Of a stretch of DNA of 64,000 nt, positions 20,632 to 24,144 are shown in pieces. The position numbers and the translations under genes were made by a program. Below the pieces are notes generated by a model. That model made no database searches and was not told the origin of the DNA. It saw nothing but the letters and a program-made list of their open reading frames with translations. Source of the stretch: Porticoccaceae bacterium (GTDB taxonomy: Bacteria; Pseudomonadota; Gammaproteobacteria; Pseudomonadales; Porticoccaceae); the NCBI GenBank assembly GCA_017858135.1, contig JAFMBY010000001.1, positions 18,628 to 82,627 on the forward strand, in the 5' to 3' direction. Position 1 is the first letter of the stretch. Every line of letters starts with the position of its first letter.

Positions 20632-21288
20632 ATGTCGCAGTCGACGTCAAAACCAACGCTTTCAGTATTTGATCAGTTTGTAGTTCAAGCCGATCAGGCT
20701 CTACGCACACTTGCGGGCAGCGCACCAGCGCCTCAACGAGGCTCACCTGGCAAACATGCATCGGAAAGCGAGTTGTCAGAGCAGGAACGGCGGCATGCAG
20801 CAGGGTTAATGCGCGTCAATCATTCCGGCGAAGTCTGTGCGCAAGCGCTTTATCAGGGTCAGGCTCTTACCGCGAAGCTTCCTGAAGTGGGTCAGCAGAT
20901 GGCTGAAGCAGCGGCTGAAGAGATAGACCATCTGGCTTGGTGCGAAGAGCGAATCAGTCAGCTTGATGGTAGAACCAGTCTGCTCAATCCCCTGTGGTAT
21001 GCCGCCTCGTTTGGTATTGGTGCCGCAGCAGGCTTGATTAGTGACAAGCTTAGCCTCGGTTTTGTCGCCGCCACCGAGGAGCAGGTCTGTAATCACCTGC
21101 AAGCCCATTTAGACAAACTGCCTGAGAATGATCACAAAAGCCGCGCTGTGATTGAACAGATGCTGGTCGATGAAAAACATCATGCCGAAAGCGCACTCGA
21201 TGCCGGTGGCCACCCATTTCCAAGACCGGTGAAAAAACTTATGACTCTGGTCTCCGGCGCAATGACTGCAAGCAGTTATCGCCTCTAG
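20632..21288 (+). CDS. coq7: Demethoxyubiquinone hydroxylase (di-iron)
   Basis: [34 protein letters not shown] di-iron motifs. Confidence 0.94.
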
Positions 21289-21299
21289 TCAAAACGCCC

Positions 21300-22274
21300 T
21301 TAATCGAACAGCATCGACTGAGGCTCGTGGGGGTTTTCCAAATCGCGAGCCAAATCGACAATCTTCTCCGACAACCAGCGATGAATGGGCGAACCCATCG
21401 TGCGCTTATGCTGAAGTAATACCAACGGAACTGTTCCCTCGTGAGGAAGGTCGTCGGGGTAGGCTTTGGTGACGATACGATAAAGCTCGCGCTCCATACC
21501 AGAACCAAATTTAGCCGCCACCATCAAGCAATCAGAAGCACAGATGGTTTCAATCGCTGTCATCAGCTGGTTGGTGACCATGGCTTTTGAACGCTGACGA
21601 CCCTGCTCTCGGAGCGCCCGGTCAAAACGGGCATCCGTGCGCGCACTGACACGCTTAGCAATCAACAAATAGTACTGAACAAAGGGGTATTGAAGAATTT
21701 CATCCAGACTGACACGGGTTTTCTTCGCTAGTGGATGACCTTCACGCATCCAGATGGACGGACTAAAAATAGCCAAGTGAAGCGCAGTAATCTCGCTGGT
21801 GATATCTCTTTTTATATCAATGGCAAAATCCAATACGCCATCAGCCAACTCTCCGGCAACAGAATCGGTCTCACTAGAAATAGACAGAATCACCCCCGGC
21901 GCATATTTGTTCAATAGTGCGGTCAACTGAGACGCGAGCGAGATCGCAATAAATTCAGGGATCGCGATAGTAATCTCTCCAACATAGGTAGCTGGATCAA
22001 ATTCGCCGTCCGTCACCATATCGAGAATCCCGTCGAGCATTATTGGCAACCTTAACTGCAACTCCAGCGCCTTGGGTGTGGGAATTAATATATTGCCGGT
22101 ACGTGTAAACAACGGATCATCCAGCTGCTGACGCAGCCGTTGCAATACACGACTCATCGCCGGCTGAGTAATAAACAGACGTTGCGCAGCGCGAGTAACA
22201 CTTTTCTCTTCTAGTAGAGCTTGAAGCGCAACCAATAAATTGAGGTCCATGCGGGACAGTTTTTGGAGATTCAT
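21300..22274 (-). CDS. LysR-family transcriptional regulator (NodD/LeuO-like)
   Basis: DLNLLVALQALLEEKSVTRAAQRLFITQPAMSRVLQRLR HTH; LDDPLFTR; substrate-binding domain. Confidence 0.93.
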   Translation of the reverse strand: MNLQKLSRMDLNLLVALQALLEEKSVTRAAQRLFITQPAMSRVLQRLRQQLDDPLFTRTGNILIPTPKALELQLRLPIMLDGILDMVTDGEFDPATYVGEITIAIPEFIAISLASQLTALLNKYAPGVILSISSETDSVAGELADGVLDFAIDIKRDITSEITALHLAIFSPSIWMREGHPLAKKTRVSLDEILQYPFVQYYLLIAKRVSARTDARFDRALREQGRQRSKAMVTNQLMTAIETICASDCLMVAAKFGSGMERELYRIVTKAYPDDLPHEGTVPLVLLQHKRTMGSPIHRWLSEKIVDLARDLENPHEPQSMLFD

Positions 22275-22288
22275 GGGCCACTCTCATG

Positions 22289-22356
22289 TCATTACAAAAT
22301 GGTATATAAATAATGCAAACAATGCATTTGGATTATGACATAGCTATCAGTATATT
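22289..22356 (+). promoter_or_regulatory. LysR operator plus sigma70 promoter, copy 1
   Basis: T-N11-A box, ATGCA-N5-TGCAT (22313-22327) abutting -35 TTGGAT, 17-bp spacer, -10 TATATT. Confidence 0.72.
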
Positions 22357-22402
22357 GTCACACATAGGGCGATGTGCCCATAAACACCCACGGAGATAGA
22401 CC

Positions 22403-22525
22403 ATGACACTCGTATATATTCTAATCGGATTCACTGGATTAGCGGGTGCTGCAATTGCGAAAGATGACTTCGCGAACGTTAAAGCACCAAAAATCAAAGC
22501 TTCAGATAAGACGCTGGCCCACTAA
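22403..22525 (+). CDS. Small 40-aa protein MTLVYILIGFTGLAGAAIAKDDFANVKAPKIKASDKTLAH
   Basis: GGAG SD 7 nt upstream; lies between promoter copy 1 and a terminator; hydrophobic N-terminal half; below the ORF-track cutoff. Confidence 0.7.
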   Translation: MTLVYILIGFTGLAGAAIAKDDFANVKAPKIKASDKTLAH

Positions 22526-22577
22526 GCCAACGGCTTCTAGCCAAACCCCTCTTAATCCTTGCTATAGGATTTTTTAT

Positions 22578-22606
22578 AGGGGCCCATCACTGGGCCCCTT
22601 TTTTTT
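22578..22606 (+). terminator. Rho-independent terminator of unit 1
   Basis: AGGGGCCCA-tcac-TGGGCCCCT followed by a T run. Confidence 0.85.
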
Positions 22607-22705
22607 ATCCCGTAAAAAAGTCTCTCTGAATATTCTCTATGCACGATTTACATTGCGCGTGGTCAGAATGCGATACATTTCCTCACCACAGTTTCCTTCT
22701 CTACA

Positions 22706-22773
22706 TCATTACAAAATGGTATAACTATAATGCAAATAATGCATTTGCAGTATGATGCTGAGATTTCTAATAT
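22706..22773 (+). promoter_or_regulatory. LysR operator plus sigma70 promoter, copy 2
   Basis: 44/50 nt identical to copy 1 without gaps; ATGCA-N5-TGCAT (22730-22744), -35 TTGCAG, 17 bp, -10 TAATAT. Confidence 0.72.
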
Positions 22774-22779
22774 AAGGGC

Positions 22780-22903
22780 ATTGAAGTTGTACACAGTTTT
22801 CAAGACTTGCTGATTAGCAGTTCTTAACAGTTTTACCCCTACCCCTTCCTTTGTGATTTATCCAAGGATTTTTTAAGGAGCCTTCCTCAGGCTCCTTTTT
22901 TTT
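22780..22903 (+). ncRNA. Candidate ~125-nt small regulatory RNA
   Basis: Bounded by promoter copy 2 and a strong terminator; no SD/ATG ORF; C/U-rich CCCCT repeats and small hairpins. Confidence 0.6.
22875..22903 (+). terminator. Rho-independent terminator of unit 2
   Basis: AAGGAGCCT-tcctc-AGGCTCCTT followed by a T run. Confidence 0.85.
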
Positions 22904-22934
22904 GTCTGCGATTTAGGCCAATGGCAAAGCTCGT

Positions 22935-23354
22935 TCAGGCTTCAATCACCTCATAGCTATGAGTCATCTCTACTCCAGCAGCATTGAGCATAATTGATGC
23001 AGAGCAATACTTTTCAGCTGACAGCTCTACGGCACGCTTAACCTGACTCTCTTTGAGGCCGATTCCAGTCACTAGAAAACGTAGATGAATCTTGCTAAAC
23101 ACGGCCGGCACGGCATCGACTCGCTCAGCCTCGACCTCAGTGCGGCAATCGGTCACCTGCTGGCGACTTTTTGTCAGCATGCTCATTACGTCAAATGAAG
23201 CACAACCGCCCAAGCCTAGCAGCAACATCTCCATAGGCCGAATGCCCATATTGCGACCACCCTGACTTTCGGCACCATCCATGACTGCCGTGTGGCCGCT
23301 CCCAGACTCACCGAGAAACATAACACCGTCTACCCATTTGATTGTCGCTTTCAT
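22935..23354 (-). CDS. OsmC/YhfA family protein
   Basis: Start ATG 23354 (MKATIKW); RPMEMLLLGLGGCASFDV and SAEKYCSASIM with two conserved Cys; divergent from crp as yhfA usually is. Confidence 0.9.
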   Translation of the reverse strand: MKATIKWVDGVMFLGESGSGHTAVMDGAESQGGRNMGIRPMEMLLLGLGGCASFDVMSMLTKSRQQVTDCRTEVEAERVDAVPAVFSKIHLRFLVTGIGLKESQVKRAVELSAEKYCSASIMLNAAGVEMTHSYEVIEA

Positions 23355-23508
23355 AGTTTGCCTCGTTTTTGATGGGGCAAAGATTACCATACCGAATGCT
23401 GTAAAATTTATTCATAACAAGGTTTTTTTGACTACTATTAGTTTTAAGAGTCGCATATAAACCTCATATAAAGCGGCATGTTGCTAAACTTGTAAATGGA
23501 GAAACAAA

Positions 23509-24144
23509 TTGGCGCCTGCACCTCTCACACCGCATATTGAAAATGTGGAAGAATTCTTATCTCACTGTCACAGACGCCGATATCCGGCAAAAAGCACGAT
23601 TATTTATGCTGGCGACCAAGGAGATACCCTCTACTACATTATCAAGGGCTCGGTCACAGTCATGATTGAAGATGATAGTGACGGTAAAGAAATAATCCTT
23701 GCCTATCTTAATCCAGGTGATTTTTTTGGCGAAATGGGTCTCTTTGACCAACAGCACCGCAGCGCTTGGATCCGCACAAAGGCCGAATGTGAGGTAGGGG
23801 AAATTAGCTACGCTAAATTTATTGAGCTAAGCAACAAGTACCCGGCATTTCTCTTTGCCATCAGCAAGCAGGTCGCGCAACGTCTGAGAGACACAACCCG
23901 CAAAGTCAGTGACCTTGCATTTCTTGATGTTACCGGTCGCGTGGCGAGAACGTTGCTGGATCTTTGCAAAGAGCCTGACGCAATGACCCATCCAGATGGT
24001 ATGCAAATCAAGATTACGCGCCAGGAGATCGGCCGCATCGTCGGCTGCTCAAGGGAGATGGTTGGACGTGTGCTCAAAGAGCTGGAAGGTCAGGGACTGG
24101 TGTCCGTGGCCGGCAAAACCATGGTGGTATTTGGCACCCGCTAA
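23509..24144 (+). CDS. crp: cAMP receptor protein (Crp/Vfr)
   Basis: [18 protein letters not shown] cNMP pocket, [24 protein letters not shown]; TTG start with GGAG SD. Confidence 0.96.

Follow-up and report, generated by a model that had tools for sequence, protein, structure and literature searches.

In the 64,000-nt window considered here, which is the whole stretch of DNA that was analyzed, a frame of 40 codons lies beside a divergently oriented LysR-type regulator gene. The locus raises the question of whether this frame is a genuine gene, where its product would reside, and whether the short transcript that carries it also acts as a regulatory RNA. A sequence-only reading of the window had described a hidden peptide, membrane-anchored or secreted, with its own promoter and terminator and possibly encoded on a dual-function RNA. 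The present analysis favors, with a probability of roughly 0.6, a putative dual-function RNA under LysR control that is akin to SgrS/SgrT or VcdRP. The coding half of this claim holds, with a dN/dS of 0.14, while the RNA half is supported rather than proven, by the conservation of a 3' core, the architecture of the transcript, a sibling small RNA, and a clade of relatives that has kept the RNA without the open reading frame (ORF).

Judged by the relatives of its LysR protein, the genome belongs to the SAR92/HTCC2207 genus of the family Porticoccaceae. The region of interest, comprising the LysR-type regulator gene (21300..22274, minus strand, 324 aa, with Pfam HTH_1 and LysR_substrate domains) and two small units transcribed divergently from it, is flanked on one side by coq7 (20632-21288, plus strand) and on the other by an OsmC/YhfA-type gene (22935-23390, minus strand) that scores above the cut-off of NCBIfam PRK10738. 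Within 22935-24144, a 211-aa ORF adjoining the OsmC-family gene was read, from sequence alone, as a Crp/Vfr-type regulator, and this pair resembles the yhfA-crp adjacency of E. coli; the LysR/sRNA cassette thus sits between coq7 and a YhfA-type and putative Crp/Vfr-type pair. A 631-nt region was matched in 24 of 25 sampled genomes of the SAR92 genus and had no match in the sampled genomes of other families of the order.

The frame itself, MTLVYILIGFTGLAGAAIAKDDFANVKAPKIKASDKTLAH, occupies positions 22403..22525 on the plus strand, with an ATG at 22403, a TAA at 22523-22525, and a Shine-Dalgarno (SD) element GGAG at 22392..22395, 7 nt 5' of the start codon, so that both the 40-aa ORF and its GGAG are found exactly where they had been reported. 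Among relatives, the frame MTLVY[ILV][LM][IL]GF.GL.GAAIAKD.F... is intact at a constant distance from lysR in 40 of 61 SAR92 species, and GGAG or AGGA stands at the equal distance (-12 to -7) in all 37 distinct relatives. Codon-position statistics, based on the first 26 codons of 35-37 distinct sequences, give 9, 5, and 22 variable sites at positions 1, 2, and 3, respectively, and thereby a 3-nt periodicity of substitutions (third versus first and second positions, Fisher p = 2e-6), with an NG86 dN/dS of about 0.14. The frame is open in 37/37 distinct sequences, and stops occur in frame +1 in 37/37 and in frame +2 in 33/37. These data strongly support a genuine small-protein gene under purifying selection. 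The gene is not hidden in public data, as had been supposed, since the exact peptide has already been gene-called on 42 public contigs, and the named members of its 90% cluster carry the label 'hypothetical protein'. Several public calls (P0003, P0004, P0028, P0048, P0055, and others) extend the peptide by about 26-40 residues upstream, through the LysR operator, as in MQTMHLDYD... from ATGCAAACAATGCATTTGGATTATGA; these extended calls are probably start-site mis-annotations.

Homologues, a search for which had been proposed as a check, were recovered with a peptide profile in 13 of 20 Porticoccaceae genera, and 43 cluster representatives were recovered from 1.8 billion proteins; none appeared in about 196 genomes from other families of the same order. 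On this survey, the peptide family is restricted to the marine family Porticoccaceae. Its members share a core hydrophobic helix (...GL.G[SA]AIA[KW][DE][DE]), as in the examples MVITALTYTILAVSALLGSAIAWDDLKRALKSKARHG, each preceded by a strong SD, and the peptide genes of other genera are quite different in nucleotide sequence. When the peptide or its alignment was used as query, the best E-values were 0.85 in Pfam and 0.024 in NCBIfam, far under the cut-offs, and the PDB sequences held no match to the peptide at E <= 10. The peptide genes are often found in tandem, with 2-4 units per array, including four units in L113 and two in L116, between LysR and OsmC in each case, and three in L114; the flanks were examined in L113 and L116, and both arrays belong to the coq7 / LysR / OsmC locus.

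Two further arrays were observed. In L117 (G060:C5:37500-48000), the LysR locus is not where the four near-identical peptide-plus-module units, MIVPAITYLVLAVSGLIGSAIAWDDLKKAARKA, are placed; three of them stand about 1 kb apart and the fourth about 6 kb beyond, with 3' flanks that are near-identical and repeated too, which suggests a recent duplication or a repeated element. In L115 (G069:C28), a partly N-masked locus, at least four short peptide genes of 26 aa, MLLTYIILGFTALAGAAIAKDEMSKL, are spaced 480-530 nt apart or further, and one copy, with a CTG start and a degraded seed, is possibly decaying.

The product combines a hydrophobic N-terminal part with a hydrophilic tail. The 17-residue hydrophobic stretch noticed earlier is present at residues 3-19, and the mean Kyte-Doolittle value falls from 1.95 over residues 1-19 to -0.82 over residues 20-40. 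The predicted transmembrane helix spans residues 2 to ~22, and the tail beyond it is charged. AlphaFold2, run with the family alignment, predicts a single helix over residues 2-26, with a mean pLDDT of 88 for residues 1-10 and 83 for residues 11-20, followed by a low-confidence tail without secondary structure. The N-terminal helix, LVYILIGFTGLAGAAIA, is rich in small residues and ends at an invariant G-x-A-I-A-[K/W]-D; the invariant residues are L3, Y5, L13, G15, A17, I18, A19, and D21. Conservation lies in the helix, and the tail past residue ~24 varies in sequence. Tail length is variable too, with some 7 to 34 residues following the AIA motif, and whole peptides of the family measure 26-53 aa. 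In about 60 family members read, no basic residue (K or R) precedes the hydrophobic core. Of the two locations that had been offered, membrane-anchored or secreted, the membrane one is supported by the conserved helix, the lack of a positive N-region, and the AlphaFold2 model, and the secreted one is less favored; the product is most likely a single-pass inner-membrane protein, as predicted from sequence and model. The tails are basic in most genera and therefore suggest an N-terminus outside and a C-terminus inside, with the caveat that the net charge of the tail is negative in part of SAR92.

The regulator next to the two units has several features of LysR-type systems. Its protein falls under the cut-off for every named NCBIfam equivalog, the top one being BsrA with 104 bits against a cut-off of 480, and its gene is kept adjoining the small units across Porticoccaceae. 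A 50-nt operator/promoter box precedes unit 1 (22289..22338, plus strand) and recurs before unit 2 (22706..22755, plus strand) with 44/50 identical positions, and the box of unit 1 is conserved between genera. It contains the palindrome ATGCA-N5-TGCAT (22314-22328), which overlaps the -35 element in both units alike, a layout that is typical for LysR activation sites. In the whole 2.4-Mb genome (G000), ATGCA-N5-TGCATT occurs at two sites, both of them at the small units. The putative sigma-70 promoter of unit 1 (22328..22356, plus strand) consists of a -35 TTGGAT (22328-22333), a 17-nt spacer, and a -10 TATATT (22351-22356). A consensus scan of the plus strand gave only a weak match for unit 1, and the -35/-10 assignment rests on cross-genus conservation, since SAR92, the ORF-less clade, L093, and Porticoccus all have TATA(T/G)T 17-18 nt past a TTGGAT/TTAGAA/TTGAAT-like hexamer. 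The transcript's own promoter, which had been claimed from sequence, is thus supported by the repeated 50-nt box together with this conservation, and the transcription start is placed near 22363. Interleaved with it on the minus strand is a promoter-like site, GTGACA-18-CATAAT (22332..22361; 10/12 matches in the consensus scan, with an extended TG), which probably serves lysR itself. With its HTH_1 and LysR_substrate domains, its divergent target, and the palindromic box near the -35, where binding is predicted, the LysR protein would activate both small transcripts, and by the strict palindrome motif its direct regulon may consist of these transcripts and its own gene alone.

Downstream of the frame, an 82-nt 3' UTR (22526..22607, plus strand) has the layout of a small RNA, with a C/U-rich seed, a first hairpin, a U-run, and a terminator, and the whole transcript of unit 1 would be about 245 nt long (about 22363-22607), its 5' end being a predicted one. 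The structured 3' UTR of about 80 nt and the terminator described earlier are both recovered, the latter as a Rho-independent terminator (22578..22607, plus strand) with a 9-bp GC-rich stem (22578-22599), a 4-nt loop, and T8. Within this UTR lies a near-invariant 26-nt core, CCCCTCTTAATCCTTGCTATAGGATT (22546..22571, plus strand), made up of the seed CCCCUCUU and the hairpin AAUCCU/AGGAUU. In a scan of 62 loci (61 relatives and the window), the core CCCCUCUUAAUCCUUGCUAUAGGAUU was exact in 30 and present with at most 4 mismatches in 54, and the mean pairwise identity over these 54 loci was 95.5%. The corresponding values for the ORF are 86.0%, 95.6%, and 69.8% at codon positions 1, 2, and 3, so that the core is conserved to the same degree as the second codon positions. 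In other genera too, most peptide genes have a CCCCC(U)-type motif and then a terminator behind them.

The terminator stems covary among relatives (GGGGCCC/GGGCCCC, GGGACCC/GGGUCCC, CGGGACC/GGUCCCG, AGGACCC/GGGUCCU, and GGGACUC/GAGUCCC), and hairpin 1 gives no covariation support because it is invariant. An anti-terminator was considered, with ACCCCU, further upstream, as the competitor of the terminator's 3' arm; it was rejected, as the seed is constant while the terminator stems change. In the predicted fold, the seed has an unpaired probability of 0.78 and the SD one of 0.52, the latter indicating that sequestration is not strong; the minimum free energy (MFE) structure pairs the CUCU of the seed with the GGAG of the ORF itself, through 4 bp that are absent from the centroid structure. 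A 5' hairpin in the same fold probably lies outside the RNA because it includes the -10 region. The features of Hfq-type small RNAs are present, namely a Rho-independent terminator with a U-tail, a prior U-rich stretch with a hairpin, and an hfq gene in the genome (104 bits), and the assignment is a predicted one. At gathering thresholds, no Rfam family matches the window, and the best sub-threshold hits are terminator-like resemblances, e.g., mmgR with 22 bits against 41. The conserved core could also serve a role in cis, in mRNA stability, processing, or protein binding.

The second unit (22780..22905, plus strand), whose 5' end is placed from a -10 TAATAT at 22768-22773, is read as a sibling small RNA. 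Its seed, ACCCCUACCCCUUCCUUUG, is related to that of unit 1, and after a hairpin and a U-run it ends in a terminator at 22875-22897 and a T-run. No ORF of at least 25 aa starts inside it, and it contains no conserved ORF. As in unit 1, its elements run from a C/U-rich single strand through a small hairpin and a U-run to the terminator, and the 3' ends of the two units have a 38-nt repeat in common, at 71% identity, which agrees with the earlier remark that the 3' UTR resembles the neighboring noncoding RNA.

The frame has been lost in part of the genus. In a 15-species SAR92 subclade (L059-L074), a deletion has cost unit 1 its SD, its start codon, and about 12 codons from there on, and the operator/promoter, the -10 element, and a near-identical 3' core are kept. 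This subclade is monophyletic on the LysR tree (support 100/99), and those members matched to sampled genomes have genomes of 1.0-1.5 Mb; in Porticoccus, the RNAs at the locus are all ORF-less. A frame disrupted in close relatives beside a conserved RNA had been named as an outcome that would speak against the peptide. It was found in this one subclade, and elsewhere the frame is under purifying selection. Because the loss is confined to one clade and purifying selection prevails elsewhere, the RNA appears to have value without the peptide, and the comparison shows, at the level of sequence, that the coding and RNA functions are separable and that the ORF is not spurious. In a second SAR92 clade (L075-L080), the small units have been lost, and the stretch upstream of lysR lacks operator, peptide, and sRNA module alike; this clade has a long LysR branch (0.6) and different neighboring sequence.

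Targets of the seed were sought in two prediction rounds, and no conserved mRNA target emerged from them. The first round, which took in all SD-preceded start codons, was swamped by internal false starts, and the second was run on a greedy set of 2136 ORFs. The best matches in the genome itself were the genes for a BCCT transporter, at C130:5168, and for an aldehyde dehydrogenase, at C130:17805 on the minus strand, each with a 9-nt seed complement at its SD and each heading one of two convergent operons of a single cluster. This pair was rejected as evidence, as six BCCT orthologues in other SAR92 species are without complementarity, and about 9 such 9-nt seed complements at SDs are expected by chance on our own estimate. 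An 11-nt perfect complement on contig C59 was also rejected, as it lies within a kinase-like ORF and not at a ribosome-binding site. As a side observation, the G000 region C130:5100-17900 is a catabolic-looking cluster that codes for BCCT transporters and aldehyde dehydrogenases (two of each), an iron-type alcohol dehydrogenase, a membrane dipeptidase, a CoA-transferase fusion, and regulators of the IclR and LysR types.

Four other explanations of the locus have to be weighed against the dual-function RNA, two of which concern the nature of the peptide. If the peptide were secreted, residues 1-19 would act as a Sec signal, signal peptidase I would cut after A-I-A, and a Lys/Asp-rich peptide of about 21 aa would be released. 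The invariant A17, I18, and A19 do satisfy the -3/-1 rule, with small residues placed as in an AxA signal-peptidase site, and G15 at -5 suits a helix breaker ahead of the cleavage region. A single-pass membrane protein is nevertheless favored because a basic N-region is lacking in every family member, and because conservation falls on the supposed signal and leaves the supposed mature part free in sequence and length, the reverse of what is seen in secreted peptides; release of the peptide is accordingly considered improbable. A type I toxin-like membrane peptide, restrained by the sibling small RNA or another RNA, would fit the short hydrophobic helix with its charged tail and the tandem multi-copy arrays adjoining small RNAs, all of which are a common layout among type I toxins. 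Several results speak against it, however: the duplex of unit 2 with unit 1 has an energy of -42 kcal/mol, and shuffled controls average -49, so that there is no special complementarity between these two, which disfavors a toxin-antitoxin arrangement; a consensus scan found no convincing antisense promoter within the ORF; and the SD is not strongly sequestered. The fixed chromosomal locus, with a dedicated LysR regulator and a distribution over 13 genera, also speaks against a toxin, which is regarded as very doubtful here.

The other two explanations concern the transcript. A purely noncoding small RNA with a chance 40-codon frame would agree with the streamlined subclade, which lives without the ORF, and with Porticoccus, whose locus has ORF-less RNAs only. 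It is contradicted by the dN/dS, the periodicity, the frame open in every distinct sequence, and the conserved SD; a chance ORF is effectively ruled out because of this substitution pattern and because recognizable homologues in other genera have different nucleotide sequences and strong SDs of their own, leaving this explanation exceedingly improbable. An ordinary small-protein mRNA has more in its favor. Here the peptide would be the sole effector, and the role of the 3' UTR would be confined to its own transcript, whether it serves termination, stability, or processing or offers a binding site through which translation of the peptide itself is controlled. Coding is firmly supported, the two rounds of prediction yielded no conserved target in trans, and the CUCU of the seed does pair with the GGAG of the ORF in the MFE fold, if only through 4 bp and not in the centroid. 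Against it, the 15 species without the ORF start keep the promoter and the core, where a pure cis element would lack its object; a related module with equal element order ends the ORF-less unit 2; and conservation of the core at the level of second codon positions exceeds what a terminator needs. An ordinary mRNA is thus thought unlikely.

The preferred reading, a dual-function RNA, would work as follows. A LysR-type regulator would drive the two tandem small units through an operator overlapping a weak -35. Unit 1 would be the mRNA of a 40-aa protein whose conserved helix may bind a larger membrane protein or self-associate, and its 3' UTR would constitute an sRNA-type module with an exposed C/U-rich, anti-Shine-Dalgarno-like seed, ACCCCUCUU. 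Whether still part of the full transcript or cut out as a processed 3' fragment, this module would probably work together with Hfq and target ribosome-binding sites in other mRNAs, with the ORF-less unit 2 as a parallel agent. The steps that we infer from the sequence data are the transcription start, activation by the LysR protein, insertion of the peptide into the membrane and its topology, dependence on Hfq, and base pairing in trans. On balance, a function at the RNA level beside the coding one is very probable for this transcript. A broader proposal, advanced tentatively and with somewhat less than even confidence, is that of a Porticoccaceae cassette, in which the only operator-bearing promoters of the LysR regulator drive tandem dual-function RNAs, each of them combining a transmembrane micro-protein with an anti-Shine-Dalgarno seed.

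The locus would add two undescribed families, one of small proteins and one of sRNAs, in SAR92, a marine clade that is widespread and includes several strains in culture (HTCC2207, H921, H231, and MOLA455), and a literature search found nothing on small RNAs of SAR92/HTCC2207. It is also a concrete case in which automatic annotation yields 'hypothetical protein' or nothing. To our knowledge, only a handful of dual-function RNAs are known, nearly all of them from model pathogens. Dozens of natural variants are available at this locus, with 1-4 tandem copies, coding and noncoding siblings, and a clean ORF-loss clade. If the cassette is true, they form a natural series from all units coding (four in one genus), through one coding unit and one pure sRNA (the window), to sRNAs only (streamlined SAR92 and Porticoccus), which would document the conversion of an mRNA into an sRNA. 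Which function came first in dual-function RNAs, and how often one of them is lost, is an open question (PMC12612679). The arrangement also suggests that the output of the LysR regulator in these small genomes passes mainly via small RNAs and a micro-protein, and, if the cassette is true, analogy with SgrS/SgrT points to a common membrane pathway on which both the peptide and the seed act.

Comparison with known systems shows both likenesses and differences. Small regulatory membrane proteins of enterobacteria such as AcrZ, MgtS, MgrB, PmrR, and KdpF have 30-50 aa and one transmembrane helix, are induced by a specific transcription factor, and act through binding to a larger membrane protein. 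The present peptide matches them in size class and in its single predicted transmembrane helix and differs in being without similarity to any Pfam, NCBIfam, or PDB entry. With the 3' UTR-derived Hfq sRNAs of the CpxQ, GlnZ, and SroC type, the mRNA likewise closes at its 3' end with a seed, hairpin, U-run, and terminator; here, in contrast, the parent mRNA is tiny and monocistronic, and processing is putative. As with sibling sRNAs, a paralogous stand-alone sRNA adjoins under an equal operator.

The closest parallels are the dual-function RNAs SgrS/SgrT and VcdRP, in which a 5' ORF is followed by 3' base-pairing and Hfq-binding parts (PMC12612679, PMC8672173). VcdRP of Vibrio cholerae has in common with unit 1 an upstream small ORF, a 3' base-pairing element (predicted here), and a Rho-independent terminator, and its 3' fragments are freed by RNase E (PMC8672173). 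The two RNAs show no homology, however: VcdP has 29 aa and binds and activates citrate synthase (GltA), and vcdRP is repressed by CRP, whereas a dedicated LysR regulator is present here. The SgrR/SgrS-SgrT system of enterobacteria resembles the locus in a divergently encoded transcription factor, in an ORF of about 40 codons in the 5' half of a short transcript, and in a base-pairing region and Hfq/terminator module in the 3' half, those of unit 1 being predicted. Some SgrS homologues are without sgrT, so that in both cases certain lineages keep the RNA without the ORF (PMC12612679). Unit 1 nevertheless has no sequence or Rfam relationship to SgrS; its regulator is LysR-type and not SgrR; its peptide, unlike SgrT, is a predicted transmembrane helix; and its units are tandem-duplicated, with 2-4 per locus in other genera.
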